43,020 nt of DNA from an archaeon (GCA_035256265.1 DATEYJ010000020.1:1-43020), one strand, 5' to 3'; shown: positions 4,068-27,020, counted from the stretch's first letter. The notes: generated from the sequence alone by a model not told the origin. Program-made: numbers and translations.

Positions 4068-5363
4068 ATGGAGAGGACTTACACGAAGGATTTGCAGGAT
4101 GGGAAGAAGGCCTTCCTGAAGGGCTGGGTGGGCCAGATAAGGGATCTTGGAGGCCTGAAGTTCATAATACTCAGGGACAGGGAGGGCTCTGTCCAGATAA
4201 CGCTCAAGAAGGCAGAGACTGACAGGAAAATCCTGGAAAGAGCGGACTCCCTTGTGAGGGAGGACTGCATAGCTGTCATGGGAATGGTCAGGAAATCCAG
4301 CCAGGCTCCGGGAGGGAAGGAGGTCGTGCCGGAGAGCCTGGAGATAGTGAGCAAGGCGAAGACGCCTCTTCCCATAGAGACTTCTGACAAGATAATAACT
4401 GGCCTGGACAAGCGGTTCGACTACAGGTTCATGGACCTGAGGAACCCCAAGGTACGCGCCATCTTCAGGGTGAAGGACATATCCCTTACCTACATGAGGG
4501 AATACTTTGAGAGGAAGGCTGGGTTCGTGGAGGTGCACACCCCTGTCATACAGGCGGCAGGAGCGGAAGGCGGAGCCACGCTCTTCCCCATGATATACTA
4601 CCAGAGGGAGGCCTTCCTCAGGCAGAGCCCGCAGCTCTACAAGCAGATGCTCATGTCATCCAGCCTGGACAGGATATATGAGATAGGGCCTGTCTTCAGG
4701 GCTGAGAAGTTCCACACGCGCAGGCATGTCTCAGAGTACCTGTCCGTGGACATGGAGATGGCCTGGATAGACTCGGAGGAGGATGTCCTGAAGATCGCGG
4801 AGGGCCTTGTGGAGCACACCATAAGGGGCATAAAGAAGGAGTGCAAGGCCGAGATAGAGGTCTTCGGCGCGGATGTGAAGGTCCCCGAGCTTCCCTTCAA
4901 GAGGCTCACCTATGATGACGTGATAGGCATGCTCAACAAGCACGGGCTGAAGAAGGAGTGGGGAGACGACCTGGATGACCCGGACGAGAAGCTGCTCGGG
5001 GAGATAATGCAGAAGAAAGGGCATGAGTGGTATTTCATAACGAAATACCCGTCCAAAATCAAGCCCTTCTACATAATGATGGACGGACGGCTTTCCAGGG
5101 GCATGGACCTGGACTGCAGGGGCCTGGAGATAGCCTCGGGAGGCCAGAGGGAGCACAGGCATGACCATCTCGTGAAGGTCATGAGGGAGAAAGGCCTTGA
5201 TCCGCACAAGTTCGAGTTCTACCTCTCCGCGTTCCAGTACGGGATGCCTCCCCACGGAGGCTTCGGCCTGGGCTCTGAGAGGCTTGTCCAGCAGGCCCTG
5301 GGGATAGAGAACATAAAGGAGATAATACTGTTCCCAAGGACTCCGGAGAGGCTGGTGCCTTAG
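4068..5363 (+). CDS. aspS: aspartyl-tRNA synthetase, archaeal type (class IIb)
   Basis: N-terminal OB domain (GWVGQIRDLGGLKFIILRDREG). Class II motifs FRAE...R, QSPQLYKQ and GGFGLGSERL. Start placed at the internal MERTYTKDL (4068) rather than the ORF start at 4011. Confidence 0.93.
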   Translation: MERTYTKDLQDGKKAFLKGWVGQIRDLGGLKFIILRDREGSVQITLKKAETDRKILERADSLVREDCIAVMGMVRKSSQAPGGKEVVPESLEIVSKAKTPLPIETSDKIITGLDKRFDYRFMDLRNPKVRAIFRVKDISLTYMREYFERKAGFVEVHTPVIQAAGAEGGATLFPMIYYQREAFLRQSPQLYKQMLMSSSLDRIYEIGPVFRAEKFHTRRHVSEYLSVDMEMAWIDSEEDVLKIAEGLVEHTIRGIKKECKAEIEVFGADVKVPELPFKRLTYDDVIGMLNKHGLKKEWGDDLDDPDEKLLGEIMQKKGHEWYFITKYPSKIKPFYIMMDGRLSRGMDLDCRGLEIASGGQREHRHDHLVKVMREKGLDPHKFEFYLSAFQYGMPPHGGFGLGSERLVQQALGIENIKEIILFPRTPERLVP

Positions 5364-6955
5364 CCAGATAAACAGGCAGAAACTGGTGGCAAATCTGGCT
5401 TCTTTTTTACTTGCATGGTGAAGGGCTTTTTCTTTTCCCTTCTCCTGAGAATCACTACTGTCCCTGCTATGACAGTTCCCGTGAGGATTATGGCGAGCCA
5501 GCCCCAGTCAGCAATCATAACTCCCCATGAGGGGCCTTCTCCCGTACATTTGCTGTCCTCGCAGCCTATGGAACATGTCTGCAGTGTTACCCAGTTGTCT
5601 CCCGCATTGCTGCACTGCTGGAGGTCCATGCCTGCGCATCTTCTTTCCCCAGGGTTGCATATCTTGACTATACTCGGACCTGTGCCTGCAGGAGGCTGGG
5701 CTATCCCCATGCTCTCTGCATACAGCTCTGTCTGGAACTGGTCAATAAGGGTGGTGTTCACTTCCTTCCTTATGGAATAGGAAATGCTCACCTCCTGGCC
5801 TGGGGAAAGCTCTGGATATGTGAAAACATACTCCGGATCTGTCTCCACTGTCTCGTAGCCTGAAGCTCCGAGAGCGGTTACTGTTATGTTGGCCGCGTTG
5901 GCCGCGAAGGCTTTGGGAACCTTCTCGTAAACCACGAGGTTCTTTATTATCTCTGCGCCATTGTGCCTGAAGTTGGATGTGAGCGTGGTCGTCCCATTGA
6001 AGGCGCGGATGCTCCTGGCCACGCTTATGTTCGAGGTTATGGACTGGGATAGGCGCATGAGGTTCTGGAAGGCCTCCTGGTCCATATTGCCCTTGGCAAG
6101 CACCTTCTCTATTGCTGCCTGGAGCTTGAGGTTGTTCCTGAGGCCGACGCCTGGCACAAGGACAGGCCTTCTGCTCTCATTCCTTTGGGTCGGGGTGATG
6201 CTGCCCGGTCCGCCTCCGGGGCTGCCCCCTCCTAGGCTGTCTCCCGCAGGGGTTCCTCCCCCGGTAACCGTTATAGATATCGTGTCTGTTGCTGAATCCG
6301 CGTTAGAGGGTGAGGTGGTTATGGTTATGCTCGAGGTGCTCACGCCCGAGAAGGATACTGTCCAGGAAAGCCCCACATTCTCCCCTGAGCCGCCTTCCCC
6401 TCCGGCTATGGTGGATATGGTCTGGGTAGAGCTGCCTGAGGTCAGGGTGGCTCCGGAAGGAAGGGTGAGGTTGACAGCCACGCTCTGGGCGGTCGTCTCC
6501 CCCCAGTTCTGGATGTTCATCTCTATGATGTTGGAGCCGGACGGGTTTGAGTAGGAGGATGGGGTGACTGTGGTTACTATGGAAGGTGGAAGCTTTATGT
6601 CGAACGAGCTGGAGGTCCCTGAGTCCGAGTAGGGAACTGCTGAAACTGCGGAAATGGTCTGCGCGGAAAGCTTCTGGTCCGCAATCACAGTGGTCCAGGA
6701 GACGCTGGTGGTCCCCTCGCTGTAGGTCTTCGTGGAGTTCTCGGAAGAGGAGAAGACGGAGGAGTTCTGGAGGGTGGTGAGGGTGACGCTTCCCGAGCCC
6801 GTAAGCCCGGAAACAGTAACGGTAAACGATTCGCCCTGCATCACGCTTCCGGAATCCGCCCCGAACTGCGAAACCGAGACGGTAAGGGTCGCGGAAGCGC
6901 TGGAGATAAGCATGAAGCATGAAACTGCAGCAATCAGCAAAACGTATTTGCTCAT
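5360..6955 (-). CDS. secreted, C-terminally TM-anchored surface protein (531 aa), Ser/Thr-rich with a Cys-rich stalk
   Basis: True start MSKYVLLIAAVSCFMLISSASA (signal peptide) at 6955, 2 nt after the stop of the 2058-aa gene. Contains S/T-rich beta-type repeats and a Gly/Pro linker GGGTPAGDSLGGGSPGGGPGS. A Cys module CNPGERRCAGMDLQQCSNAGDNWVTLQTCSIGCEDSKC follows, then TM helix WLAIILTGTVIAGTVVIL plus RRREKKK. The upstream 178 codons of ORF 5360..7489 are an out-of-frame overlap with the giant gene. Confidence 0.75.
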   Translation of the reverse strand: MSKYVLLIAAVSCFMLISSASATLTVSVSQFGADSGSVMQGESFTVTVSGLTGSGSVTLTTLQNSSVFSSSENSTKTYSEGTTSVSWTTVIADQKLSAQTISAVSAVPYSDSGTSSSFDIKLPPSIVTTVTPSSYSNPSGSNIIEMNIQNWGETTAQSVAVNLTLPSGATLTSGSSTQTISTIAGGEGGSGENVGLSWTVSFSGVSTSSITITTSPSNADSATDTISITVTGGGTPAGDSLGGGSPGGGPGSITPTQRNESRRPVLVPGVGLRNNLKLQAAIEKVLAKGNMDQEAFQNLMRLSQSITSNISVARSIRAFNGTTTLTSNFRHNGAEIIKNLVVYEKVPKAFAANAANITVTALGASGYETVETDPEYVFTYPELSPGQEVSISYSIRKEVNTTLIDQFQTELYAESMGIAQPPAGTGPSIVKICNPGERRCAGMDLQQCSNAGDNWVTLQTCSIGCEDSKCTGEGPSWGVMIADWGWLAIILTGTVIAGTVVILRRREKKKPFTMQVKKKPDLPPVSACLSG

Positions 6956-6957
6956 TC

Positions 6958-9900
6958 TCACATCACCTTGAACCACATCCCGGTGGTCTCCGTATTGCCG
7001 CCATAAGCGGTCTGTATGTCCGCCATGTATTCCCCTGACCAGGAGCCCTGGGGAATTATAATTATGATCGCGTATCCGTTCTGGTCTGTCTGCGTGACAT
7101 TGGCGGGAAGATTGTAATGGGTTCCCTGCTCCAGCTTCATGAACCCGAAGCCCGGCATGTTCCCCTTTATCGCGGGCACGCTCACGTTCGCCCCCTGTAT
7201 CGGGCTCTGGTCGAAGTTGTAAGCCCTCAGAAGTATGCTTATGTTCCTTGTCCCGTTTATCTCCCACTCGTCCTTGAGCAGGAGCATGTCCGTCCCGTTG
7301 TATTTCTCTATGTTCCACTGCGGCTGGTATTCCCACCTGAGGCCTTCCGTCTGATCGCCGAACCAGATGTTGCCTGACCATATGGAGCTCGGGAGGCTTG
7401 ACCTCTTCTCTCCCAAGCTTCCTGCCTCGTTTCCGTAGAAGTCCTTCTTGTAAACCGCGCTCTGGTTTGTGTTGCTTGAGGACCACCACTCCTCTGTTAT
7501 GTTCAGGTCGTCATCCACTATTATCTGGTTAAGGACCTGCTGGCCGTCATCAAAATCGTCAAATGTCACTGCATAGAACTGGTCGCCCTTATCCCCGTCC
7601 ATGTTCAGGTCCAGGCTCAGGGCGTTTTCATCAAGCAGATTGAAATAGCTGGTGGTGCTGTCCCTTGCCCTTATATCCACTGCAGGCCTTGGAAGGCTTC
7701 CAAGTGAGCTGAAATTGGCTATTATGATGCCTTCCCAGGGCGCAGGACCTACCTTTGCCGCATAGAGCTGGCTGGTAAAGTTTTCCCCTGCATATGCAGG
7801 AACAGCCTGGGAGAAGTTGGCACTCGTGCTGAACCATGCGCGCTTTATGCATTCCTGTATGTTCCAGACTGAGCACATGGGATATTCCATGGTGTCATTC
7901 GCAAGAATCACATTGTAATCCGTCCCGCTTATGTTGAGGCCCATGATAAACCAGACAGGTGATTCTGTCTCCTCTCCGGGCGGGCCCCACGTTTCCACCT
8001 TCACGGGGCTTATCTGGTCATTGAAGTCCTGGCTGTTTATGCCTATTACAACAGAATATGTATAGGCTTCGGCATCCAGCACCCTCACCATGTATTTCCT
8101 CGTGTTCTTGGTGACGTTTATGGCTGGCGCGGTCAAGGCGTCATACTCGGTTGTGTTGGTGGTGAAGTTGCAGTCCCCTGTCTTTATCCATACCCTGCTG
8201 GCATTGGAAGCTGTTATGTAATAATAATACTGGGGGTTCGTGAGCCTGCTGCTCCTGAGAGTGGCATTGGTTTCATTGCTTCCGGCTGCAGAAGGCTCCA
8301 CAAAATTGCATTCGGTCAGGTTTGCCATATTCCCGCCTCCTGCACCTGCAAGGTCCAGCACGCCCTTGAAGAACTTGCTCATATTTGTCCAGTTGACTGT
8401 GTAAAGCTGCATCGGTTCCCCGTAGCTTTCCCAGTCATACCTGCTTATTGGCAGCGGCTTGAATCCGGACACGTATCCTGCCTGGCCTGTGTAGCCGTTT
8501 ACAAGGAATGTCCTCGGGTTCGCCCGCGGCCACTTCCACTCCTCCAGTATCTCCTGGCTGGAGCCCTGGGCTACCCGTACCTCAAACACGTACTCTCCCG
8601 AGCCGAGGCTGTACTGGCTTATGTTGGCTATCCTCACCTCTCCGGTCCCGTTTATTGTGGCATTGGGAACGGATGACCCAAGCCCTTTTATGATGTTCAT
8701 GCCTGCTCCCTTGACCCTTATGTTCGGTATGGAGACGTTTGCCTCTGCCGGAGCGCCGGCGGGTGTCCTCACTATGACTGGTATTGAGATGTTGCCATCC
8801 ATCCTGAAGTCCCCGAGGCTTGCCCAGTCGCCTATCTTTTCCGAGTAGAACCTTGCCCTGTCAGCCCTCGGGTCTATGCTGAGCAGGATTACGGTATCGT
8901 TCAGGCCGAACCTCCTGGCGCTTATGTTCGGGTCGTTCACAGAGATTTCAGTGGAAAAGTTGCTGGTTCCTGTGTGGTTGAAAAAGAAGAAAGTGTCGTA
9001 AATCCCTGCCACGGCGCTGTCCGCTATGGCTATGTAAACCGAGCTGTTCGTGTATCCGTCCCCGTCAAGGTCCAGGCCCCTGCTCTGGCCTGTGCTCCTG
9101 TCCCATCCCCCAAGCCATCGCTCCTCTATCCTTCCCAGCTTTATCACCCCGCTCTTGGATTTGGACACGTTTATATATGCCCCTGTCTGCGGAAGGACGT
9201 TCATCCCGGTTATCTTTACCCTGCTCTTGCTTATTGAGCTGACCTTCCACTGGCCCCCATAGGGATCGCTGAATGTGTCACCCACCGTTCTAGCTGGTCC
9301 CAGCAGGCTCATGTTGGATGAGCTGTTTGAAATCCAGGCATGGGTCGTGTTGTGGTAAAAATAAAGGGAACGCGTCTGGTTTCCTGAGAGCGGCGTGAAC
9401 TCCCCTCCCCTGTCGCCTACGAGGTTCTCAAGGAAGCCGTGGTAGAATGAGGTGTGGCTGGAAGGCGGCCTCATTATGTAGCCGGACTGCTGGCATCCCT
9501 GATCCCCGCAGTTTATCCAGGACTCCCCGCAAACGCCGTCGGTATTGTTGATGTGGAAGGAATTGTTCTGGGGGTCTCCTATTGACACAACCGTCCAGTT
9601 GTTCCCCGCGGCTGAGAAATTGCCACCTGCGCTGATATTCTCCCCGCTTATGCTTAGCATGGTTCCATTGGACGAGACTGTTATGTTCTCCCCATCATCT
9701 GTCCCGCAGCCTTCGGACATCCATTCCCCGGAAGCTCTGATGCAGAATACCCGGATGTTCCATTCTCCCTGAACCCAGTTCCCAGGGAACGTCATCTGGT
9801 TGCTGCACCTGTCCCTGTCGTTGTTTACCTCCACGTCCTTTGAGGACGTCTCGGAGTATCCGACCCAGCCCTCCTCCACGCTGGGTATGCCCACAAGCGT

Positions 9901-12900
9901 GTTCTGCACCATGAATTCCAGGCGCTCGGCCTTCTCGTATCCCTGGCTGTCATTCACAGAGTATTCTGCAGAATACCGGCCTGGCTGGATGGATGAGAGG
10001 TTCGCCGTCACTGTGCACATGTTTCCTGAGCAGTTGGTGGCTGAAGCCAGCCTGAGAGGGTTGCCTGTTTTCTGGTTGAACACGGATTTCAGCTTCGTCC
10101 CGGCTTCGCTCAGGTTGTGTGGGTTGGTTTCAAAATCCAGGCCTGTGAAATTCACCGTGAGGTTCTCCGAGGATGAGAAGGCGGGCATCCAGTTGTCCCC
10201 CTTCCTGTAGGAAACCTCAATGTTGTACGTGGAAAGGCTGAAGAAGAAGCTTCCTATGTCCGAGCCCTTGCTCGTGGACACTCTGACATTCGCCTGGATG
10301 TCCCCGTCCTTGTCCAGGCCTGTTATGTTTATGACTGTCATGTTAACCGGTCCAGGGTTCCATTCTGTATATACGGGAGCGGTTCCTGCAGATATAGAAA
10401 GCGAATCTACCGGTATTTCCACAGGAGGCCAGCCGACCAGCCATTTCACGCTCTCCAGGGAAACGGATGACATTTGAAGCATGTCTCCTGTGGATGGATC
10501 CCTTGCGGAAACCGCAAAAAGCACGGTCCCGCCCTTCTCGAAAACCGAGCTCATGTCCCAGGAGCCGAGAAGCGCAGTCCCGTTATCGGTTATCTTCATG
10601 GCCTCAACGTAAAGGTTCCTTATCTCGAAGCCGCCCCAGCCGAAGTAGGAATTGTTCGCGTTTACAGGATCCCTTGCCAGAAGGTCCATGCCATACCATC
10701 CGCTCTGCATCCTGGAGCTGAGCGGGACTATCGTGAGGTTTGCCGTGGCGTTCGCGACCGGCGTGCTCTCGACATAATAATCTATCCCGTAGGTCATATC
10801 CTTCATTATCTGGTCATTCCTCAGGGAGCTCACATTAACAACCAAGCCATCACAGTCCGTGCATGTGAGGCTGTCCGTTCCCTTGCCCATCTGGCTCATC
10901 ATGCTTCCCTGGTCTATGTCCACGACATTGACTATGAGAGTTATGTTCTTCCCTGCGCCGCTTATGCAGGGCCCGAAGCTCTGGCTGCACTGGGGAGTTG
11001 CCCATATCATGTATTTCTTCAGCTGGAAGAATGCAGAGCCTGTCCCTGTCTCCTCTGTCCCGTTCACGAAGGCCTTGAACTTGAACCTCATGAAGAAGAA
11101 GCCCTCTGCATCAGGGGAATTGAATATCAGGGTCCCGTTCTGAATGCTCTCGTTCACGGATGTCCTGAACTCGCTTGTGAAAACGTCCTGGTAGTCCGGG
11201 AACTGTTTGTAAATCTCTATTATCTTGGCGCCTGTTATGTTCTGCGGGGGAAGGTCCTGCCTGGTGGCCAGGTCCCTTATCTTCAGCTTTATCTTCATGG
11301 TCGTGTTGGGCGCGAAGAACCAGTAATCGTCACCCTTGGAATCCACGGAGGCGCCTTCCGCATAAAGCCTCTGCACGCTGAAGCTTGCGCCTGCCTTCTT
11401 CCTCTCCCCATTGTGGCTGACTTCCGCCACCGCCTTGTAAGTTCCGGTCCTGTTGGGCGCTGCGAAAATTATCACGCACTGCCTCAAAATTTCCTGGGGC
11501 GGGCCCTCCTCCTCGGACATGGTGACGTTTGACATGCTTATTGCCCTGGAAATATTGACAGAATAATGGACGGGTATGTCCAGTCCAATTCCCCTGTCGT
11601 CCCTGAACTCCACAAAGGAAACCACACTTCCGCACTCATCATCCGGAGTGCTCGAATTGTCTATGTCTATCATGCCCGCCCCCTCGGGGCCCTGCGCCAT
11701 CATCCCGCCCGCGGAGATGTTCGAAAGGAAAACCATGAGGGTGATGTTGCCCTGCGGCGCGAACGCGTTCACCTGCGCCCCCTGGCCCTCTGCCTGGTCT
11801 ATGAAATCCATGTTCATCGCCATCAGCTCCAGGGAGGCGGACTCGACCGAGAACCCTGTTATGAATTCCTGGCTGCTGCCTCCGTACGCTCCTGTGATTT
11901 TCACCCCATAGTTCCCGTTAATACTTCCCAGAGAAAAGTCATGATAATAGCTCCCTGTATCGCTCTGCGTCATGCCTGCCGTGACGGAGGTTCCGTTGGG
12001 GTAGGTGATTTTCACAGAGCCTGAAGTGAGGTTGACAGCATTCCCGTCGGCGTCCCCTGAGCTGGCATATATCCTCACGATGGAGTTTGGCGCGAAGGAG
12101 GATGCTGGATTGTCTGAAAGGTCAGTTGCCTTTCCCGTTAGCTTGAATGACTCGACTGTGAAGAATCCTGTCCCTTTGCTGTTGTTCAGGTCTATTGTAT
12201 ACGAACCAGCGACTGAAGGGGCTGTGAAGCTCGCTGTGAAGAATCCCATGCTGTTTGTGGTGTTCGTGAGCGAGCTTATCACTCCTTTTGAGGAGTTCAT
12301 GAGCCTTGCATGCACGGTTACTCCGGCGGCAAGGTTCTTGTCCGAGTCCTTTGCCATGACTATGAAACTCACAGCAGAGCCTGCTGAATACACTGAACTG
12401 CCTTTTGGCTTCCCGAGGACTACCCTGTTTCCTGTATTATAGTCTATCTCCCCTATCATGTAGTCCCCGAATTTCTGCCCCTTCTGGAGTATCCTCTCTA
12501 CCATGTTCCCGGAGTCTTCTGTCCCATTGTCAGTGTCTATCAGGAAGCTGATGTCATCGTCTATATACAGGGTGTCATAGGTCTGGTTGTAGTTCTGGTC
12601 CATAAGGACGAAATGGTAAGTCATGCCGTCCATGCTCGCGTTTCCGTAATGGAGGGTCCCTGATATCGAGGAGGCTCTCGGCTCGGAGAAGTTCCCTCCC
12701 ATTGCATCATCTGCTGCTATTGTTGCGCTTGTGTCCACGGACTTTATGTCCTGTGTATTTATCAGGCGGGTCTCCAGGTACGTGATGGTTGAGACCACCT
12801 CGAAGCTCATTGGTATGGTGACCGAGCTGTCTGATATGTTTGCTGTGTATGTTCCCTCCAGTCCCGAAAGGGGTTGCGAAAGCGTGAATATGTTAGAGCC

Positions 12901-13134: not shown

Positions 13135-13234
13135 TATTTAATACTTTGTCGAAGGTTGAATAAATACTTTGTTTAAACATTTCCGGTTTGCATTTATGCT
13201 CCAAGCATTTTAACCGCTCTCACAATCTAATAAT
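13135..13234. promoter_or_regulatory. divergent promoter region between the giant-protein operon and the pilin-like operon
   Basis: 100-bp AT-rich spacer between two divergent ATGs. 10-bp direct repeat AATACTTTGT at 13140-13149 and 13163-13172. TATA-like TTTAAAC at 13172-13178 and TTTATG at 13193-13198. Confidence 0.45.
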
Positions 13235-13630
13235 ATGGCCATGAAAGCCCAGATGTTCGTGCTGACCATGATATTCCTCATGGGCCTCATCTTCGCCGTC
13301 CAGCAGCTGCTCTTCCAGTACACCGCCCTGGACCTCTCCGCGCCCTTCAGGCAGAACCCTGTCTACCTTCTCGAAAATACCAAGAACATTATCAACCGCA
13401 CGATAAGGTTCACTCCTGAATGCGCGGACTTCGGGGCAAAAATGGAGGAATTCAATGACTTCCTTAACACAAGGGTCCCTCCGGGCGGCTACATAATCTC
13501 CCTCAGCTACAGGCTCAACTGCACCTACTGGAACAACCTTCCCCCAAATCCCACCCCCCTCAACGTGAGCATATTCATACAGGGCAGGGGCTCGGAGGCC
13601 TCCTCCATCCTTTATTTGTACCACAGATGA
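13235..13630 (+). CDS. pilin-like protein with an N-terminal hydrophobic helix (131 aa)
   Basis: N-terminus MAMKAQMFVLTMIFLMGLIFAVQQLLF: a short polar leader followed by a ~20-aa hydrophobic helix. First gene of the plus-strand operon. Confidence 0.6.
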   Translation: MAMKAQMFVLTMIFLMGLIFAVQQLLFQYTALDLSAPFRQNPVYLLENTKNIINRTIRFTPECADFGAKMEEFNDFLNTRVPPGGYIISLSYRLNCTYWNNLPPNPTPLNVSIFIQGRGSEASSILYLYHR

Positions 13631-13640
13631 TTTCTGGAAA

Positions 13641-13662
13641 GAAGGTGACTGAGGTCGCCTTC
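13641..13662. repeat. GC-rich hairpin family member (GAAGGTGAC-TGAG-GTCGCCTTC)
   Basis: 9-bp stem (one G.T pair) with a 4-nt loop. Lies between stop 13630 and the likely start at 13672. The 5' flank is CTGGAAA. Confidence 0.7.
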
Positions 13663-13671
13663 AAGCTGACG

Positions 13672-13794
13672 ATGCGAAAGAAAGGCTTTCTTGATATCAG
13701 CCTGAGGACAATCGTCCTGATAATTTTCGCGGTTGCGTTCCTCGCTCTTGCAATCCTCTGGGTCTCCAGATTTTTCGGGAACATGCCTTTCTAA
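13672..13794 (+). CDS. mini class-III-signal (pilin-like) protein, 40 aa from MRKKG (55 aa if started at 13627)
   Basis: Hand-translated; below the ORF-track cut-off. Sequence is MRKKG/FLDISLRTIVLIIFAVAFLALAILWVSRFFGNMPF, that is a basic leader ending in G followed by a hydrophobic helix. The alternative ATG at 13627 overlaps the upstream stop (ATGA), but its first 15 codons are the hairpin. Confidence 0.45.
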   Translation: MRKKGFLDISLRTIVLIIFAVAFLALAILWVSRFFGNMPF

Positions 13795-13808
13795 AGCAAA
13801 TCAACCGC

Positions 13809-13817
13809 TTTTATAAA
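13809..13817 (+). promoter_or_regulatory. TATA box (TTTTATAAA) for a leaderless transcript starting near 13840
   Basis: The box centre is about 27 bp upstream of the ATG at 13840. Confidence 0.5.
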
Positions 13818-13839
13818 CGTGCATGGATAATAACTTATT

Positions 13840-14436: not shown

Positions 14437-14437
14437 A

Positions 14438-14446
14438 TTTTTTCTT
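14438..14446 (+). terminator. oligo-T tract (TTTTTTCTT) immediately after the stop at 14436
   Basis: Archaeal terminators are typically T-runs. A TATA box for the next gene follows. Confidence 0.35.
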
Positions 14447-14497: not shown

Positions 14498-14518
14498 CCA
14501 GCTAACCAATACTATGGT

Positions 14519-17330: not shown

Positions 17331-17350
17331 ATGAACCGGATTCAGGGTAT

Positions 17351-17375
17351 TTTTCTGCATATTTTTTCTGCATAT
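17351..17375 (+). repeat. tandem direct repeat TTTTCTGCATAT x2 (period 13) abutting a TATA box
   Basis: Copies at 17351-17362 and 17364-17375, read directly. Lies in the 59-74 bp gap upstream of gene 17405. Confidence 0.7.
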
Positions 17376-17383
17376 TATATATA
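17375..17383 (+). promoter_or_regulatory. TATA box (TTATATATA) for a leaderless transcript starting near 17405
   Basis: The box centre is 26 bp upstream of the ATG at 17405. This favours 17405 over the ORF-track start at 17390. Confidence 0.5.
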
Positions 17384-17404
17384 CCAAGAATGACAATTAT
17401 TAGT

Positions 17405-19231: not shown

Positions 19232-22200
19232 GATAATCGCTCTGGAGACATTTGCGATATTCGTCTCATACCTGGTCTTCTCCCTGACCATGGTCGCAGC
19301 CACTGACGTGAACATAATGTTCAATGGGGTGGTCCAGGACACAGCAAAGTATGACCATGAAAAGATAATAAACCTCCAGGTATCCACCAAGCACGACCCG
19401 AATGATGTGACATGGACGAACATAAAGCTTGCGGTCATGGTGAACAGCGCCAGCCTAAGCCACAGCATAAAGAAGATATACCTTTACAAGTGCAGGAGCG
19501 TCACCCCGACAGAATGCGTGCGCTCCACGCCACAGGTGTTTGACAATTACGCGGACACTGAGCTGCTCTGGAATGACATATACGAGAAGACAGGCCCTGC
19601 CCAATACCCGCAACTGGCCAACCTGCTCTTCCTGGTGAAGATGGAGGACCTGAACAAGAAGGAGAGCTGGGTTGGTATGTTCACCCAGACCAGGAGGACA
19701 AACTACAACATCTTTGACACGCAGCAGCTGAGCGTGCAGAGCATAGACCTGTACGCAAAGTCCTTAGACCTCGTGGAGCCCATAAAGGCCTACATAGAAA
19801 ACAAGTTCATGATTCCATTCAAGTGGGTGAGCAAGGCTGTGTTCTCAGGCTCCACCCAGCTTTACGGCATGGGAGCGGACAGCCAGGATCTGGAAACACC
19901 TACCATCCAGACAGCCGTGGTCACTGGTAACGAGATAACGAACATAAACAAGGAGTTCTACTTCGTCTCCCCGAAGATCAGCTCAGGGATAGCCAGCCCC
20001 ATAACCCTTAACCTGAACCCTTCATTTTCCTGCGGGAACAGCGTGTGCGAGAGCGACATAGGGGAGACCACGAAATCCTGCTGCTATGACTGCGGCTGCG
20101 GGCCCGGCCAGTTCTGCGATACCGCCTCTAACATAAACCTGAGCGCGTGCAAGGATGACGGCCAAAGCCTTTCCGTAATCTCAGCCTCATCCCAGCCCAT
20201 CTCGGACTGCGCAAAGGGCTTCAACGCCAACATCTCTGTCCGCGTGAGCAACCCTCCCGCGAGCCTTAGCTCCCAGCTCCAGGGGACTGTCTCCCTCAAC
20301 AAGACGCTTTATAGCGTGACGTGCTCGGGAAGCTCAGGCTCATATGAGTGCACGATTCCCCTTACCTCGAACATAAAGTGCGGAAGCGGCTCCTATGTGA
20401 TAGGCCCGGGCATCCTCAACCTCACGATAAGCTACAAGGACGGCCCCAACTCCGCGAGCAAATCCTTGAGCGCCTCCTTCTCCGGCGTCTCGGTCAGCTA
20501 TGACTGCAAGTGCCAGGACGGCTCCTACTGCGACTCGCTCAAGAAGACCTGCCAGTCCGAGGCCGCAATCACACTTGGCATAACCAAGCTCACCTCCTAC
20601 TTGGATAATTACAATCCAGGGGACAGGATAAGCCTTACCGCAAAGATATTCAACCCGCCCGCAGGCCTTGTCCTGGTGGACAAGAGCGCCACCATGAACC
20701 TCACGAACGGCCAGGTAGCCCCGGGAACCCCGGACTGCTCAGCCCCCAATTCCCAGTTCGAGTATAATTGCACCATACCCTTCCAGATATCAAACTACCA
20801 GAAGACCCAGGCCTACACCTTCAATCCAAACACCCTTCACTTCACAATCACATACAATGACGGCCCGCTCGCCAAGACCAGGACCATCTCAGCTCCTTTC
20901 GGCCCCGTGAGCATACCCTCCCAGTACTGCGGGGACAGCCAGTGCAACATGGGAGAGAGCCAGGCCACGTGCTGCCTGGACTGCGGCTGCCCGAGCCCCG
21001 GGACCCAGTACTGCGACAAGACCTCGGGCTGCAGGAATCTTGATTCCCTATCCATATCCGTGAACTCGGTAAATCCCGTGAACTTCACGGACTGCAGGCA
21101 GGCCCATGCGGTCTACCTCACGATCCCTGTCGCGAACGCCCCCACTGACATCAGCCTTGACTACTTCGCGTACATGCAGAACGGCCTTGTGAAGGGCTGG
21201 CAGATGAAATGCGACAAGGTCGCTGTCAGCATATTCAACTGCACGCTCGTGATCCCCGCGCTTGAGAGCGAGGGCTGCTCCCTTCCCTACAAGACCATAA
21301 GCGGGAACTCCATAAACATGACCATCTCATTCCCTGACGGGAAATCCAAGCAGATAGTCAGGCACCTTAACGCGCCCTTCCAGGACCTTTATGTGACTCC
21401 CGTATACCACTGCGGGGACGGCACGTGCGAATCCTCGCTTGGAGAAAATCCAAGCGTGTGCTGCTATGACTGCCCATGCAAGGACTCCTCCTCTTTCGGG
21501 GAGGACTACTACTGCGACTTCGACCAGCAGACCTACCTGGGCGGCTGCCTTCCCAAGTCCAGCATCTCTCTTGTTATAGACTCCCCCAAGGTCACTGTCT
21601 CCCTCACCAGCTGCGAAATCACGAACAGCGTGAATGTCAAAGCCCATATAGAGAACCAGCCCGGGAGCGCGAGGCCCCAATACTTCTACGCCACCATAAA
21701 TGGCACTGCCGCTGAGATGGTGCACTGTGACCAGGAGCAGGCCTTCCAGGGAGGCAACCTCAGCTTCAACTGCACGCTCATGCTTCCCAGGATATACATG
21801 TGCTCCCAGGGCCAGACCTACACCTTCTCTCCAAACGCCCTCTCCGTCCTCCTAAGCTACCAGAACGGGAAGCAGAAGACTGAGACACAAACCCTCTCGG
21901 CCCCCCTGCCCACCATCATAATCAGGCAGGGCATCCGCTCCCTTTACGACATCACCCAGGAAGGGATAGCCAAGATGAAGCAGAGGCTGTACAGGACAAT
22001 AGAGATAGCGAGGGACCTTTACGGCGCAATCAAGGACTGCATGGAGACTGTCAAGACCCTGGTATACCTCCAGCTTGTCCTCACCATCGCAGGGGCTATA
22101 GCAGGCTCAGCTAGCACCGATACTCAAATTAAAACCCCTCAAGGTGGATATGCATCAGATCCTTTTTCGAAGGCGGTAGCCGGCGCTTACGTAGGAAGCC

Positions 22201-22991
22201 AGATAGGCGGCAGCCTCGTGCAGTCATACTCGAAGCTGTGCGAATTCCTCCAGGCCCAGTACCGCATCGACCTGGAGATACAGAACATGGAGATCAAGAT
22301 GATAAACATGGAGATGTGCATGGAAGTCTATCAACACCAGCTTGACATAGGGCGGTGTGACAAGTCTCCGGAATCCTGCTTCACCAGCATAACGTCATGT
22401 GTGAACACCGGCCTGAGCGACGTGAGCTCCTCCGCGGACAAGCTGAGCGACATAGTGAGCAAGGCCACCAACAGCCTCCAACAGAGCACATCAATACTGG
22501 GAAGCGTGTACAACTCGGTTGGCATAGTAACCGGGTCATCCAGCTCGGGCGGGACTACATCTATCCAGATGAGATGTGATGAAAGGCAGCTTGAGTGGAG
22601 CGGCGACTCCTGTTGCAATGTTAGAGGAAGTGCCACAACAACCACAACCGGCACCACAACCACATATGAATGCAAGGATAAAAAAATCCTCAGCTTGTTC
22701 ATAGCAAACAAGGCACAGAATTGCAGCGCCCTCATAACCGAACAATGTAAAGAAGATGGTAGTAGTTGCTTTATGTATAAAGATGGCGCATGGTCCGTAG
22801 ATGTAGATAAGTTGATAGACAAAACAACTACGTTAGGCTTCAAGTTCTACTGCTATAACAACAATAATGAGTATAACACAGATACGGAGACTGGCAGAAC
22901 CAAACATATGATAAGTGCGTCAAGTGGCGATAAATACTATAAAATCGAATTAAAGAAAAACGATGCTTCAAAGGTCACGTGCAATTGCTAA
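19221..22991 (+). CDS. 1256-aa modular cysteine-motif surface protein with a late TM helix and a Cys/Thr-rich tail
   Basis: Overlaps the upstream gene by 11 nt. Signal/anchor MKFRIIALETFAIFVSYLVFSLTMVAA. Four modules begin with a CG[DN]xxC...GE....CC.DC.C....YCD-type motif (one degenerate). Each is followed by a beta domain containing [YF][EN]CT[IL]. Hydrophobic helix LVYLQLVLTIAGAIAGSA. Tail contains TTTTTGTTTT and many Cys. Confidence 0.8.
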   Translation: MKFRIIALETFAIFVSYLVFSLTMVAATDVNIMFNGVVQDTAKYDHEKIINLQVSTKHDPNDVTWTNIKLAVMVNSASLSHSIKKIYLYKCRSVTPTECVRSTPQVFDNYADTELLWNDIYEKTGPAQYPQLANLLFLVKMEDLNKKESWVGMFTQTRRTNYNIFDTQQLSVQSIDLYAKSLDLVEPIKAYIENKFMIPFKWVSKAVFSGSTQLYGMGADSQDLETPTIQTAVVTGNEITNINKEFYFVSPKISSGIASPITLNLNPSFSCGNSVCESDIGETTKSCCYDCGCGPGQFCDTASNINLSACKDDGQSLSVISASSQPISDCAKGFNANISVRVSNPPASLSSQLQGTVSLNKTLYSVTCSGSSGSYECTIPLTSNIKCGSGSYVIGPGILNLTISYKDGPNSASKSLSASFSGVSVSYDCKCQDGSYCDSLKKTCQSEAAITLGITKLTSYLDNYNPGDRISLTAKIFNPPAGLVLVDKSATMNLTNGQVAPGTPDCSAPNSQFEYNCTIPFQISNYQKTQAYTFNPNTLHFTITYNDGPLAKTRTISAPFGPVSIPSQYCGDSQCNMGESQATCCLDCGCPSPGTQYCDKTSGCRNLDSLSISVNSVNPVNFTDCRQAHAVYLTIPVANAPTDISLDYFAYMQNGLVKGWQMKCDKVAVSIFNCTLVIPALESEGCSLPYKTISGNSINMTISFPDGKSKQIVRHLNAPFQDLYVTPVYHCGDGTCESSLGENPSVCCYDCPCKDSSSFGEDYYCDFDQQTYLGGCLPKSSISLVIDSPKVTVSLTSCEITNSVNVKAHIENQPGSARPQYFYATINGTAAEMVHCDQEQAFQGGNLSFNCTLMLPRIYMCSQGQTYTFSPNALSVLLSYQNGKQKTETQTLSAPLPTIIIRQGIRSLYDITQEGIAKMKQRLYRTIEIARDLYGAIKDCMETVKTLVYLQLVLTIAGAIAGSASTDTQIKTPQGGYASDPFSKAVAGAYVGSQIGGSLVQSYSKLCEFLQAQYRIDLEIQNMEIKMINMEMCMEVYQHQLDIGRCDKSPESCFTSITSCVNTGLSDVSSSADKLSDIVSKATNSLQQSTSILGSVYNSVGIVTGSSSSGGTTSIQMRCDERQLEWSGDSCCNVRGSATTTTTGTTTTYECKDKKILSLFIANKAQNCSALITEQCKEDGSSCFMYKDGAWSVDVDKLIDKTTTLGFKFYCYNNNNEYNTDTETGRTKHMISASSGDKYYKIELKKNDASKVTCNC

Positions 22992-23031: not shown

Positions 23032-23661
23032 TTATTTGATTTCAATCTTATCCAATTTCCCTTCTTGCTTTATTATCACATTCTGCTCTTGATGAATTAA
23101 AGGTTTATTTCCATTTTCTCTGAGAATTTCAAAGTAATTCCCGCCGTTGCTTTTTCCATCGCTTTTGTGAAGAACTTCCCTTTCAAAATAGCCGGGGACG
23201 TAAAGCGTAAACTCATGAAATGACGGCTTTGAAAATGTAGAATGGGCATATATCTTCTCTTCTATTATCTTTCCTCCTTTTTCGGTCGCTAGAATCGTCA
23301 AGTCGTTTTTTAAATTGAATCTCACCGTGACCTGCATAGGCGTCTTGCCGATGGACTTGCCATCGTATATGACCTCTGCCCCTTGGGGCCTGGTGTCTAT
23401 GTTCAGAACATCCACCTCGTCGGGCAGGGTTTCAACTCTTTCATAGAACCTGGTCGTGGCGCAGCCCGCCAGCATCATGCCCGCTAGGGGCGGAGCAATG
23501 TATTTAGCAAATCTTTTGTAAAAAGGCTTCCTTTCCAGGGCCAGAAACAGCTCTTCGTATGGAAGCTCCCTTTCCCCTTCCAGGTAGTTCCCTATCGGGT
23601 TCTTAGTGGCCATCTCAAACACCTTTGCCCCATTTCTGGGGTTTGAGAGCAGTGCTCTCAT
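23032..23661 (-). CDS. PEGA-domain putative lipoprotein (209 aa)
   Basis: Lipobox-like LAGC (PPLAGMMLAGCATT) and a PEGA-type segment GAEVIYDGKSIGKTPMQVTVRF. AT-richer than the island average. The long polar N-terminus leaves the start uncertain. Confidence 0.55.
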   Translation of the reverse strand: MRALLSNPRNGAKVFEMATKNPIGNYLEGERELPYEELFLALERKPFYKRFAKYIAPPLAGMMLAGCATTRFYERVETLPDEVDVLNIDTRPQGAEVIYDGKSIGKTPMQVTVRFNLKNDLTILATEKGGKIIEEKIYAHSTFSKPSFHEFTLYVPGYFEREVLHKSDGKSNGGNYFEILRENGNKPLIHQEQNVIIKQEGKLDKIEIK

Positions 23662-23856: not shown

Positions 23857-25281
23857 ATGAAATCCCTTCTGCCTGTATTCATTCTGGCTTTTCTCATGCT
23901 GGCCGGATGTGCGCATGCCCTCCGCCTCACGGACGGCCTCTACTTCACCGTGGCCCCGAACTCCACCGCGGAGGTCTACTTCATACTCCCGGATGACCTG
24001 GGAGCAGGCCAGAGGAAGGCTGATTATTACATAACCACGGATTCCAACTGGTCCACGGACCTCACGGAGCAGATAATCACGACAGAGGAGAACAATACTG
24101 TGATAACCCCCATAAGGTTCTTCTCCTTGGACAAGAAGGAGGGGGACTGCTCGAACTACACTGTGAGGATATCTGCTCCCTCCCTGAGCCTTTCCAAGAC
24201 ATGGAAGGGAGGGGTATGCCTGTCCAAGTACATGGATGTGGACATAGCCAAGCCGGGGAAGGATCCCGGAACCGTCCTGAACAGCAATGCGGACATTTTC
24301 AGCCTGGGTTTCGCCACATATTCAAAAACTGCCAAGCCTGGGGACATATCCATAGAGCTGCTCCTGCAGTCCCAGGCAAGCCTTACCATAGACGTGAATG
24401 TGGATTCTGGGATTCCTTTCGAGCAGAAAGTCTTTGTTGTCCAGACCTCGCCAACCTCCCAATATAAAACCCTGCTTCTGAATGCCAGCAATATCCTGTC
24501 AGGGACTTATGATGTAAAGGCCACGGGAAAAGCCAGGAGCTGCTCCCTGGACTCATGCACGAGGCAGGCTCCCATGAGGCTTGTGGTTTCTGACTCCGTT
24601 CAGGAAGGGTTTTCTGTCTCCCTGTTTCCGGAGAACCTTGCCATAAAGAAGCTGGAGCCAGTGAGCTACAGGCTCACCATCCAGAACAATTACGGGGAGG
24701 AGAAGGCCTTTGTGGTGAGCGTGGAGAGGCCTTTTGACCTGGATAGTTCTCTTGTCTTGGACAGCTTCACGGTTCCAGGCCTTTCCGAGAAGACAGTGGA
24801 ATTCACCGTGACCCCGAGGAACCAGACAGGATTCTATGAGATAAAGGCCACGACAAGCTCCGGGGGCATGGACAGGCTCGCTTCCTCCTACCTCTCGGTG
24901 AATGAGATGGTGTCTGATGTCTACAGGAGCGCGGATGATATCAAGTCTCTTGCGAACTCCTCCCTGGACGCGAGCGTGGACAGAACAGTCAGGAACTGGT
25001 ACAGCTCCTACTCCAAGAGCGATGGCCAGAACCTTACAGAGTACAAGAATCTTCAGGATGCCCTGGATTCCGCAAGGAAGCAGGCCCTGTCAAGCCAGGG
25101 CCAAAATCAGACAGAGCCTGGGCAGGGCGACGATATTCCCCAGGAGGAAGAGAAACCTGAATCTCCTTTCAATTTCGGGATTATTCTCATCCCTGTGGCT
25201 CTTGGGATGGGTGTTTTCTTAGTCCTGCTTTTGCTGAGGAAAAGAAAGGGTAGCGGACAGGAATTCCTGGAACTGAAATGA
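23857..25281 (+). CDS. lipobox/signal-bearing surface protein with a C-terminal TM anchor (474 aa)
   Basis: N-terminus MKSLLPVFILAFLMLAGCAHA (signal plus LAGC lipobox). Contains CARDB/Ig-like beta segments. C-terminal TM helix IILIPVALGMGVFLVLLLL followed by RKRKG. Confidence 0.7.
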   Translation: MKSLLPVFILAFLMLAGCAHALRLTDGLYFTVAPNSTAEVYFILPDDLGAGQRKADYYITTDSNWSTDLTEQIITTEENNTVITPIRFFSLDKKEGDCSNYTVRISAPSLSLSKTWKGGVCLSKYMDVDIAKPGKDPGTVLNSNADIFSLGFATYSKTAKPGDISIELLLQSQASLTIDVNVDSGIPFEQKVFVVQTSPTSQYKTLLLNASNILSGTYDVKATGKARSCSLDSCTRQAPMRLVVSDSVQEGFSVSLFPENLAIKKLEPVSYRLTIQNNYGEEKAFVVSVERPFDLDSSLVLDSFTVPGLSEKTVEFTVTPRNQTGFYEIKATTSSGGMDRLASSYLSVNEMVSDVYRSADDIKSLANSSLDASVDRTVRNWYSSYSKSDGQNLTEYKNLQDALDSARKQALSSQGQNQTEPGQGDDIPQEEEKPESPFNFGIILIPVALGMGVFLVLLLLRKRKGSGQEFLELK

Positions 25282-25290
25282 TTTTGGCTG

Positions 25291-25312
25291 GAAGGCGTCC
25301 GCTGACGCCTTC
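25291..25312. repeat. GC-rich hairpin family member (GAAGGCGTC-CGCT-GACGCCTTC)
   Basis: Perfect 9-bp stem with a 4-nt loop, in the 38-bp gap between convergent genes 23857..25281 and 25320..27020. The 5' flank is GGCTG. Confidence 0.8.
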
Positions 25313-25319
25313 TGTCAAG

Positions 25320-27020
25320 TTAGTAGAAATCCTCGTCAGAGAACTCGTCCTCTTCCTTGTCCCCGCCCTCTTCCAGCTCTTCTTCTCCCGCATCCTTCTT
25401 CTTCCTGAACTTCTTGAAGAGGAAGAACCCCACCAGAGCTGCTGCAGCCACTCCCCCACCTATCAAGGATATTGTTACTATGTCAGGGCCCGGAGGCGTT
25501 TCGGGGATTTCGCATATGTTGCTGCTTGAGCATGTCTCTCCTGCATTGGTGCAGTCGCTGTCCGCGCAGCATTCCACACATGAGCCCCCGCAGCACACGC
25601 CTCCTGTGCATGAATCACTATCGCTCTTGCCTTCGCATTCCAGGGGAGGCGATATATTGGATTCGCACTTCTTGTCTGCTGTGCAGTATTCGTCCGTTCC
25701 TGTGCAGTCAAAAGAGGTGCAGCACTCCCCTCCGGATATGCACGAGCTATCGCAGCATATACCATCCGTGCCGCAGGAGTTCAGATTGGCCTTGCCTTCA
25801 CACTCGCCTGCCTGGATGCACTTGTACTCGGAACTGCATGTTCCGGAGATGCAGTTCAAATCGCTGCAGCACTCCACCGCACCTATTATGCATGTTCCGC
25901 TGCAGCATCTTCCCCCGAGGCACAGCTCCAGATCATCCTTCCCTTCGCACGTTACTGACTGACCTATGACGCTTATCTTGAATTCCAACGGTATCGGGAA
26001 CTGCATGATATCAGAGGACATGGTCGCTGTCGTGGAGATGTTGGTGTCGGACTGTATATTCTTCAGGGTGATTGAAAGGAACGTGCTCTCGTTCGGCCTG
26101 AGGATTGTGCTTTCGGCGCTTATGCTCAGGTATCTGCTTACGTCAACAGGCTCTGAGGGGAGAATAAAATCTATCGCGGTTATGTTCTCAGTCCCTGTGT
26201 TGGTCAGCTTGAACTTCTTGAGCGTGAAGGTCTGGCCGGAGTTTATGGTGGTTGAATAGCTTATCTTGCTTACTACCTGGCAGGTGGTCCCTGTGCAGGA
26301 CTCCAGCCTTATGTCCCCCACGGGGACTGTGCCGCCTCCCACTGCGATTTTCGAGACGCTTCCACCGAAATCGCCGCCAGCGTTGATTGTGAATTCTATG
26401 TAGTAGTTACCGTCGGGAAGTGTGAAGTTGCTTGATATGTATTTCAGGTATTGCGGGTTGTAATTCATGTACCCAGCCTTTACCTCACCAAGCGTGTCTG
26501 CCGAATATATCTTGTAATTCATCCTGCTGGCCGCGCTGGCTGCCACCGCTGACATGTAAACCGTCTTGTCTATCACGTCCACGCGGGGAGTTATCGTTAT
26601 CCCTCCTACATAAAGCTCTTTCGTGCTGTTCAGGGTCTGGCCATACTTTATGGCATTGACCTCTATAGTATAAGGAATCCCGTACGTGGGCGAGGGGAAG
26701 AGGCTGGGACCGCATATGTCTGTTTCTGTGTTGGAAAAATAGCACACCCACCTGTTGTTCGTGTCCCTCGGGGGGAAGCCTCCAATACCTCCCTCTATCC
26801 CGTAAAATATCCAGTTGAGGCTCACGGGCTCCGTGGGCAGGGCATTGGGATTGGCTATTATCAGAAAGCTCGAGTTGACTGAGAGGTTCGAGGGTATTAT
26901 GGTGATTTCAGGTGGGTCTATAGCCCTCACGCCTGGCAGGAACAGAAACGCAGCAAACGCTAGAATCCAGTAGTATTCTGGCCTGAAGGTGGCAAAGCCG
27001 CCTTCTTTCCAACGTGTCAT
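25320..27020 (-). CDS. surface protein with a triple CEGK cysteine-knot-like repeat, TM anchor and acidic cytoplasmic tail (566 aa)
   Basis: Signal YYWILAFAAFLFLPGVRA, followed by beta domains. Three ~45-aa repeats CEGK..[LS].C..G.CC...C...ECC...DC......C. TM helix IVTISLIGGGVAAAALVGFFLF followed by KKFRKKKDAGEEELEEGGDKEEDEFSDEDFY. Confidence 0.75.
   Translation of the reverse strand: MTRWKEGGFATFRPEYYWILAFAAFLFLPGVRAIDPPEITIIPSNLSVNSSFLIIANPNALPTEPVSLNWIFYGIEGGIGGFPPRDTNNRWVCYFSNTETDICGPSLFPSPTYGIPYTIEVNAIKYGQTLNSTKELYVGGITITPRVDVIDKTVYMSAVAASAASRMNYKIYSADTLGEVKAGYMNYNPQYLKYISSNFTLPDGNYYIEFTINAGGDFGGSVSKIAVGGGTVPVGDIRLESCTGTTCQVVSKISYSTTINSGQTFTLKKFKLTNTGTENITAIDFILPSEPVDVSRYLSISAESTILRPNESTFLSITLKNIQSDTNISTTATMSSDIMQFPIPLEFKISVIGQSVTCEGKDDLELCLGGRCCSGTCIIGAVECCSDLNCISGTCSSEYKCIQAGECEGKANLNSCGTDGICCDSSCISGGECCTSFDCTGTDEYCTADKKCESNISPPLECEGKSDSDSCTGGVCCGGSCVECCADSDCTNAGETCSSSNICEIPETPPGPDIVTISLIGGGVAAAALVGFFLFKKFRKKKDAGEEELEEGGDKEEDEFSDEDFY
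26985..27005. repeat. GC-rich hairpin family member (GAAGGTGGC-AAA-GCCGCCTTC) inside codons 6-12 of gene 25320..27020
   Basis: 9-bp stem (one G.T pair) with a 3-nt loop. It encodes KEGGFATF on the minus strand. The 5' flank is TCTGGCCT. Confidence 0.7.

Follow-up and report, generated by a model that had tools for sequence, protein, structure and literature searches.

Here, we report that a 21.7-kb region of surface-protein genes in an archaeal contig, originally predicted from the DNA alone to be one island of 14 genes for pilus-linked attachment, is a composite of a conserved pilin-like operon and a separate module that encodes a giant secreted protein and its membrane-anchored neighbour. 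The window, that is, the whole stretch that was analysed, is the complete 43,020-bp contig DATEYJ010000020.1 (assembly GCA_035256265.1) from a metagenome-assembled genome (MAG) of the Aenigmatarchaeota, an uncultured DPANN phylum that is thought to be host-dependent. The region (positions 5360-27020) holds 14 successive open reading frames (ORFs), g01 to g14, between aspS and a gene for a tRNA-binding protein. We call the operon module A (13235-22991 and 23857-27020) and the giant-protein gene g02 with its partner g01 module B (5360-13134). Both modules probably belong to the surface equipment with which a small symbiotic archaeon covers its cell. On balance, we read module A as a lineage-specific pilin/adhesin module of the type IV filament kind, whose products would be assembled by machinery encoded elsewhere; that it serves attachment to a host or partner in particular is a further step, which we grade below the filament/adhesin reading itself.

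A conserved operon and a separable gene pair

Conservation was examined in 15 loci from GTDB species representatives, every taxon-named one of which is from the Aenigmatarchaeota, and in additional contigs obtained by exact look-up, with synteny judged by tblastn of the window proteins against the fetched loci. The order g03-g05-g06-g07-g08-g09-g10-g11, followed by a short variable gap, g13 and g14 (on the minus strand, convergent with g13), is kept in about 20 Aenigmatarchaeota loci at 30-70% amino-acid identity. Gene order of the operon is thus strongly conserved in relatives. The usual position of the operon is between PCNA/aspS and tRNA_bind/ERCC4/CTP synthase. g13 is found in 12/12 of the loci whose contig is long enough, and g14 in 10. 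Nearly all named homologues of the region's proteins are from Candidatus Aenigmatarchaeota (DPANN), the exceptions by taxon label being one relative of g10 (Micrarchaeota) and two of g02 (Halobacteriota and Ca. Pyrohabitans).

Two ORFs lie outside this conserved order. tblastn gave no match to g12 in any locus, and the matches to g04 land on the N-termini of g05 orthologues, with no separate g04 gene in locus L003, one of the closest relatives. g04 and g12 are window-specific and not part of the conserved unit, which, as judged from these alignments, consists of g03, g05 to g11, g13 and g14. In the complete genome CP070801.1 (L001/L007), a masked run of X at about 9120-9220 sits just upstream of a g08 fragment, and the apparent absence of g03-g07 there is therefore not judgeable.

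The pair g02+g01 has a distribution of its own. It accompanies the operon only in the two closest relatives, L003 and L005. In L018 (Aenigmarchaeota, 217-kb contig) and L019 (181-kb contig), a giant is directly followed by a protein of 526 aa and 513 aa, respectively, that is 42% and 40% identical to g01 and has the same C-terminal transmembrane (TM) helix, while the neighbourhoods contain glycosyltransferase genes (L018) or housekeeping genes and no pilin operon. The operon, in turn, occurs without g02+g01 in at least 10 loci. By this comparison g02+g01 is a self-contained, independent two-gene cassette, and the single island of 14 genes must be given up: the cassette is found without the operon, it is absent beside the operon in most relatives, and two of the remaining genes are confined to the window. 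Our analysis thus separates a conserved operon from a mobile pair of giant glycoprotein and anchor.

The slot divergent from the operon holds different giants. It is occupied by g02 in the window, L003 and L005, and in L024 by the gene for a 1329-aa surface protein (394-4383, minus strand) with a faint match to DUF4215. Several other loci have no giant gene in this slot, and aspS lies close upstream of g03.

The proteins of the operon

N-termini and TM helices of all 14 proteins were judged by hydropathy and a motif script. Every one of the 14 begins with a secretory, lipoprotein or pilin-type N-terminus, as had been claimed, and none of the 22 flanking genes does (0/22); likewise, a secretory or class III feature was found in 0/70 of the ORFs beyond the region that are 80 aa or longer. 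Sec-type signal peptides are present in g01, g02, g11, g13 and g14. The motif [KR][GA] stands directly before a strongly hydrophobic helix in g03, g04, g05, g08, g09 and g10, and the same six have a class III leader, here defined as a short leader with charged residues that ends in [KR][GAS] and runs directly into a hydrophobic helix of about 20 residues. g06 and g07 have a hydrophobic N-terminal helix without a cleavage motif, and the leader is absent from all their orthologues (0/16 for g06 and 0/15 for g07). The original description of eight pilin-like genes is therefore right in part: six ORFs carry the class III motif, g06 and g07 do not, and g04 is merely a copy of the g05 helix. C-terminal TM helices with a charged tail occur in g01, g13 and g14.

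The operon begins after a divergent spacer between g02 and g03 (13135-13234; 100 bp) that is AT-rich and, on inspection of the sequence, contains TATA-like elements. All genes from g03 to g11 are on the plus strand, with junctions of -4, 45, 82, 67, -11, -1, 74 and -11 nt. These coordinates agree with what had been described from the DNA, namely a divergent spacer of 100 bp, a 2-nt gap between g02 and g01, and starts that overlap or follow closely. With the putative cleavage site marked by a slash, g03 (13235-13630; 131 aa) has the class III signal peptide MAMKA/QMF..., conserved in orthologues as K[AG]/QMF. g04 (13627-13794) is a 55-aa ORF with the N-terminus RKKG/FLDISL..., which duplicates the N-terminal helix of g05 and nothing else of it, and is doubtful or lineage-specific. 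g05 (13840-14436; 198 aa; RKG/AIELSLGFIV...) is the most pilin-like protein of the set and a candidate major subunit; its orthologues conserve [RK]K[GA]/A[IF][EQ]LSLGF. g06 (14519-15001; 160 aa) has a conserved hydrophobic N-terminal helix, M[DN]V[GS]M[VI]F..., that lacks a K/R-G/A site, and g07 (15069-16214; 381 aa) has an N-terminal TM helix without a class III motif and a Cys-rich ectodomain of no assigned fold; orthologues of g07 keep the helix as M..VYR.FQ.IFG... and never show a cleavage site. g08 overlaps g07 by 11 nt, with a start at 16204 by homology (the ORF is open from 16147) and an end at 16722; it encodes about 172 aa with the class III site LKG/QSEMMEH, kept in orthologues as KG/QSxxMEY. 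g09 starts at 16722 or later (ORF from 16605), perhaps at a GTG at 16809, and ends at 17330; its product of at most 202 aa has the class III site LRA/QSSMIL, kept as K[AG]/Q[TS]S.

The glutamine at +1 in several of these sites is in the style of EppA-processed euryarchaeal pilins (Pfam PF04021/DUF361). Background on Q+1 processing of the EppA style is available (PMC4858521). In hhalign comparisons among the small families, similarity was confined to the N-terminal helix (including g06 against g05, and g09 against g08 at 82% probability), which is as expected of a set of different pilins; g07 showed no similarity to g10.

A TTTATAAA-like TATA box about 25-35 nt upstream of g05 (at about 13809-13817 in the window) is kept in most loci, as is a TATA-like box at a similar distance (about 25-35 nt) upstream of g10, and in the window a T-run follows the g05 stop codon. 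These signals suggest at least three transcription units, g03, g05 and g10-g11. With its own promoter and the most conserved helix, g05 is the best candidate for an abundant main subunit. Separately, the 67-bp spacer between g06 and g07 contains a perfect 11-bp inverted repeat (GGAGGCGGCAA / TTGCCGCCTCC, at 15006-15016 and 15032-15042), a candidate RNA hairpin that could act in processing, stability or attenuation within the operon.

The largest of the pilin-like proteins is g10, a modular protein of 608 aa with the N-terminus MAKG/QAEF.... Homology places its start at 17405, five codons downstream of the start of the 613-aa ORF at 17390, and it ends at 19231. Homologues of g10 form more than 100 clusters at 90% identity and, in an exhaustive library, more than 150 clusters (50% identity) with E<1e-71 and 232 with E<=1e-30. 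The N-terminus is KG/QxE[FIL], with G4, Q5 and E7 invariant in 36 sequences. An AlphaFold2 (AF2) model (pLDDT 87, pTM 0.74) shows an N-terminal helix (residues 4-25), a second helix (36-63) packed on alpha/beta domains (36-243), and after these a series of beta-sandwich domains in tandem. Foldseek searches with this model returned only local matches to immunoglobulin (Ig) or carboxypeptidase-regulatory-like domains and no solved pilin. The extra modules of the window protein are beta-sandwiches (CarboxypepD_reg-like) and include no VWA domain; three longer relatives (P0257, P0265 and P0280; 996-1102 aa) have an additional C-terminal VWA domain. One of these three is labelled Candidatus Micrarchaeota by its submitter, and either the g10 family may reach beyond the Aenigmatarchaeota or the bin may be mislabelled.

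g11 (19221-22991; 1256 aa; deposited as VJ485_01015, hypothetical protein [archaeon]) directly follows g10 in 19/19 loci. In most of these the two genes overlap or abut (by 11 nt in the window), and in seven (L002, L009-L011, L014, L015 and L017) a gap of about 20-45 nt separates them. The pairing holds even at low identity, in L023 (31%) and in L022 (27%), the most distant locus. The overlap of the g11 start with g10 suggests translational coupling and, by extension, that g10 and g11 form a complex. g11 is a Sec-secreted stalk protein whose signal peptide ends in ...SA/T[DN]VNI. A beta-sandwich head (28-265) leads into four Cys-knot and Ig modules (about 271-900); beyond these, three helices of about 55 residues precede a C-terminus that is hypervariable and rich in Cys. 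The repeat of the knot is CGDGxCExxxGExxxxCCxDCGC. The four Cys-knot and Ig-like repeats are seen both in the sequence and in an AF2 model of residues 28-1120 (pLDDT 82, pTM 0.37), and g11 is thus indeed the modular Cys-motif protein that had been described. Residues 1-1060 are conserved, and the tail beyond them is hypervariable in sequence and in length (65-705 aa), with PKD, Big_5 and PT-HINT domains found once each among 29 homologues. Tails diverge gradually over their first 150-200 aa. In every homologue, the most hydrophobic stretch falls within the first long helix (aa 943-965 in the window); we considered and rejected a single-pass TM topology, the domains after this helix being of extracellular types.

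The best Foldseek match of g11 is to plexin PSI-IPT ectodomains (E=4.7e-12, at a global TM-score of 0.11). Like these, g11 alternates small disulfide-knot domains with Ig-like domains in an extended stalk; unlike plexins, it lacks a Sema domain, and the likeness is most likely a convergent modular architecture. More generally, Foldseek searches of PDB and BFVD with the g10 and g11 models gave generic multi-Ig matches with global TM-scores of at most 0.15 and no pilin, fusogen or toxin fold.

The last two members of the operon, g13 (23857-25281, plus strand; 474 aa) and g14 (25320-27020, minus strand; 566 aa), are both type I membrane proteins that combine Ig-like domains with a C-terminal TM helix. 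g13 begins with a signal peptide, and the cysteine of its supposed lipobox is not kept in orthologues. g14 has, in addition, Cys-rich repeats and an acidic tail. Between g11 and g13 lies the window-specific g12 (23032-23661, minus strand; 209 aa), a candidate PEGA lipoprotein, as had been proposed: it has a LAGC lipobox after an internal start and a match to PEGA in Pfam (E=2.6e-6).

Apart from this domain and an Ig-like MG2 domain in g02 (Pfam, E=1e-14), scans of all 14 proteins with Pfam and NCBIfam gave nothing above threshold; a match of g01 to DUF11 in Pfam was weak. Sequence and profile searches of PDB with g01, g02, g05, g07 and g10 found nothing significant. The proteins are thus uncharacterised. 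Profile matches to characterised S-layer, substrate-binding or adhesion families, which the original prediction had said would speak against it, were absent from Pfam, NCBIfam and PDB, and none of the other findings that it had named as contrary was made.

Possible roles of the operon

What, then, might the products of module A do together? In the scheme that we favour, they would be the secreted subunits of a structure resembling a type IV filament. A prepilin peptidase would cut g03, g05, g08, g09 and g10 after [KR][GA], and an ATPase and platform of the FlaI/FlaJ type, encoded elsewhere, would polymerise them through their hydrophobic N-terminal helices. g05 would be the main subunit and g03, g08 and g09 minor ones, with g10 as a large modular pilin in complex with the g11 stalk and its exchangeable C-terminal domain. 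Accessory or base parts may be provided by g06 and g07, with their uncleaved helices, and by the two type I membrane proteins, g13 and g14. In such an assembly g10-g11 would be held out from the cell, and the most plausible purpose of this would be to attach to a partner cell or a substrate.

Several observations weigh against this scheme. No member of the region passes a curated pilin threshold in Pfam or NCBIfam (Pilin_N PF07790 and Class_IIIsignal PF04021 included), and neither sequence profiles nor Foldseek identified a pilin in PDB. In favour of the scheme, Pilin_N was the commonest match in a relaxed Pfam scan of 77 family members, although in only 5 of them and sub-threshold (best E=0.011). 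The cleavage motif is missing from g06 and g07 in all orthologues. Genes for a secretion ATPase, platform or prepilin peptidase are missing from the 43-kb window, from the 10-kb flanks of the operon in the relatives with gene annotation (L001, L002, L022, L023 and L024), and from a further 10 kb leftward on a longer contig of the same organism (L020/L021). Finally, high conservation across the sampled loci and a fixed stoichiometric order are unusual for fast-evolving adhesive pilins and would fit a structural envelope complex too.

On the question of machinery, homologues of FlaI, FlaJ and FlaG are present in most Aenigmarchaeota MAGs (PMC8407114), conserved scaffold proteins of pili or archaella have been reported with variable pilins in the clade (bioRxiv 10.1101/2025.08.05.668663), and pilin loci separate from ATPase/TadC loci are known in archaea (PMC4858521). 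Archaeal type IV pilus loci also commonly combine at least five minor pilins with an adhesin and S-layer-like proteins (PMC4858521).

The closest parallel that we found is the Epd locus of Methanococcus maripaludis, or 'system 1' of the archaeal type IV filaments, which is reported in some DPANN (PMC4858521; bioRxiv 10.64898/2026.04.22.720090). Like the operon, it clusters at least five distinct class III proteins, with EppA-style sites and Q at +1, together with a large protein that resembles an adhesin and with accessory proteins of the membrane or S-layer-like type. Unlike it, the operon is not accompanied, within the cluster or nearby, by genes for an ATPase, a split platform, an EppA peptidase or MinD, its proteins have no match to Epd or arCOG pilin families detectable via Pfam/NCBIfam, and its large partner is of the Cys-knot/Ig type and not DUF2341/PilY-like; moreover, the gene set is specific to the Aenigmatarchaeota. 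The bacterial FimU-PilVWX-PilY1-PilE module (PMC4858521) likewise joins several small pilins to one very large Sec-secreted non-pilin, with an inferred role in tip priming or decoration for adhesion. Here there is no homology, the operon is archaeal with class III peptides, and no beta-propeller is predicted in g11 28-1120. A DUF2341 domain or C-terminal beta-propeller, by which a PilY1-type protein would be recognised, had no Pfam match in g11 and 28 homologues, and the modelled residues 28-1120 show Ig/Cys-knot modules and helices; g11 has a helical bundle and a variable C-terminus, and the likeness is one of analogy only. In Streptococcus sanguinis PilB, as in g10, a pilin N-terminus carries large extra modules (a vWA module in PilB; PMC8179133, PMC9934059). 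Variants of the g10 family do add a VWA domain, whereas g10 of the window has beta-sandwich modules, is archaeal and shares no sequence homology with PilB. The 'novel secretion system' of arCOG01314 (PMC5898192) was considered as well and dismissed, the operon being without MoxR, vWA and DUF4350 components.

The main rival reading of the operon, which we think unlikely, though to be taken seriously, is that its products form no filament and instead build an envelope complex resembling a pseudopilus or bindosome. A short stub embedded in the membrane would anchor g11, g13 and g14, and perhaps the S-layer, as cell-wall housekeeping and not as an adhesin. This would explain the unusual conservation of the operon, and it sits well with the fixed gene order across the sampled loci, the position among informational genes and the retention of seven distinct families as single copies. 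Two members without a cleavage site (g06 and g07) recall anchors of the ArlF/ArlG type, and the use of class III signal peptides by bindosomes is known in Sulfolobales (bioRxiv 10.64898/2026.04.22.720090). Yet the VWA variants of g10 and the hypervariable end of g11, with PKD, Big_5 or PT-HINT, are features of interaction or adhesion proteins, and g05 has its own promoter, as for a major filament subunit.

Going beyond the filament module that we favour, one may picture a host-contact organelle particular to this DPANN lineage, a more speculative idea to which we give rather little credence. Its shaft, derived from a type IV filament, would consist of g05 and the minor subunits and carry a terminal g10-g11 complex. 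This complex would present a Cys-knot/Ig stalk of about 25-30 nm (an estimate from the domain count), then the conserved helical bundle with its hydrophobic, Gly/Ala-rich helix, and at its end an exchangeable C-terminal 'warhead' (Ig, PKD, Cys-rich or PT-HINT). The organelle would serve host recognition by Aenigmatarchaeota, and possibly membrane engagement or effector delivery. If true, this would be the first molecular handle on partner contact by the phylum.

Delivery of effectors on contact as the operon's main business, with g11 as a stalk like that of a polymorphic toxin whose variable C-terminal cargo is presented by the pilin-like proteins, strikes us as improbable. It draws on the contrast between the conserved residues 1-1060 of g11 and the variable tail, on the conserved hydrophobic helix in the three-helix region, and on one g11 orthologue (P0113; L024:10001-14659) in which a PT-HINT/intein-splicing-type domain (aa 1240-1358) is followed by about 190 aa without an assigned domain. 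However, PT-HINT occurs in only 1/29 homologues, the other recognisable tail domains are of Ig type, and the tails drift gradually and are not swapped as cassettes. Nor is there an immunity-like gene: in L024 the conserved g13 begins 33 nt after the PT-HINT-bearing g11 with nothing of the kind between them, and in the window the gene directly downstream of g11 is the non-conserved g12 on the opposite strand. A polymorphic toxin was thus rejected as the main explanation. Least probable of all is one integrated attachment island of 14 genes with the giant tethered by the pilin set or by g01, which, although the genes are adjacent and divergent across 100 bp in the window, L003 and L005 and every product is a surface protein, is largely refuted by the synteny described above (cassette without operon, operon without cassette, a different 1329-aa protein in the L024 slot, and g04 and g12 not conserved).

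How new is the filament module? A literature search found no description of this specific conserved operon. Judging from its sequences, the novelty would lie in a defined operon of about 10 families, none of them covered by Pfam or NCBIfam, with the hallmarks of a module of type-IV-filament subunits and an adhesin, and the census of archaeal type IV filaments would gain new families from it. No new principle is involved: loci of archaea in which many minor pilins accompany a large adhesin (PMC4858521), and DPANN 'dark-matter' islands of probable divergent pilins, the latter by Makarova and colleagues (PMC6393860), have already been described in general terms. g05, g10 and g11 now offer concrete targets for metaproteomics, antibodies, cryo-electron tomography and multimer modelling.

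The giant pair and the flanking genes

Module B comprises two genes on the minus strand, separated by 2 nt. g02 (6958-13134; 2058 aa) is a candidate giant secreted glycoprotein with a Sec signal peptide and an MG2/Ig-like domain at aa 248-323. It has 83 sequons (N-x-S/T), where shuffled sequences lead one to expect 28 (z=12.5); no such enrichment is seen in the operon proteins. The g02 family comprises about 21 homologue clusters of 1938-2369 aa. Two of its homologues, P0143 and P0148, are labelled 'Halobacteriota archaeon' and 'Candidatus Pyrohabitans sp.' (Hydrothermarchaeota), labels that suggest a wider distribution, horizontal transfer or binning errors. g01 (5360-6955; 531 aa) opens with a Sec signal peptide, contains Ig/DUF11-like domains and a Cys knot, and ends in a TM helix with a basic tail.

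Hydropathy found no C-terminal TM anchor in g02, in agreement with the original view that the giant has no anchor of its own. Two tethers had been offered for it, the TM partner and the pilin set. The conserved adjacency of g01 favours the former, and the occurrence of the pair independently of the operon makes the latter unlikely. The obvious tether would therefore be g01, and module B may be pictured as a sequon-rich secreted protein held on the membrane by a co-transcribed, TM-anchored partner.

Could the pair be a two-component S-layer? In Sulfolobales, the gene for SlaA, a large unanchored glycoprotein and outer canopy protein, directly precedes that for SlaB, a smaller stalk protein with a C-terminal TM anchor. 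g02+g01 repeat this layout, with a large unanchored protein followed after 2 nt by a partner of about 520 aa that has a signal peptide and a C-terminal TM helix, and the pair is conserved. The extreme sequon enrichment of g02 and the glycosyltransferase genes that adjoin the pair in L018 point the same way. On the other hand, neither protein has sequence similarity to SlaA/SlaB or, in Pfam, NCBIfam and PDB, to any S-layer family. A survey by structure prediction assigns MSTP-like beta-sandwich S-layer proteins to the Aenigmatarchaeota (bioRxiv 10.1101/2024.05.28.596244), and 21 homologue clusters of g02 compare with more than 150 of g10. An S-layer role for g02+g01 is therefore putative, a possibility that we hold to be doubtful.

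The genes on either side of the region are ordinary archaeal housekeeping genes. Ahead of the region come a Taw1-like radical SAM enzyme, Ogg, HhH-GPD, PCNA and aspS; beyond its far end follow the tRNA_bind protein, an ERCC4/Hef-like nuclease, CTP synthase, a helicase, TFB, the thermosome, Rpo4, Pus10 and POR. Genes identical to those of the window are found on a 61,318-bp contig (CAYZXI010000002.1) and a 46-kb ENA scaffold.

Some minor observations concern gene calls in the flanks. aspS (plus strand) and g01 (minus strand) are convergent, and their ORF ends overlap by 4 nt (5360-5363). On the identical contigs L020 and L021, the gene calls put a 41-aa mini-gene resembling Desulfoferrodoxin_N (PF06397) at about 2384-2509 on the minus strand and cut the HhH-GPD gene to 216 aa, and because of this shortening the 249-aa ORF at 1728-2477 probably starts later. 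A 553-aa ORF at 33864-35525 (plus strand), antisense to the thermosome gene (33824-35506, minus strand) and with no Pfam match, is most likely a spurious shadow ORF. A 471-aa ORF at 39555-40970 (minus strand), also with no Pfam match, shares about 300 nt with the beginning of the Pus10 gene and either has a start further downstream or represents an unannotated gene.

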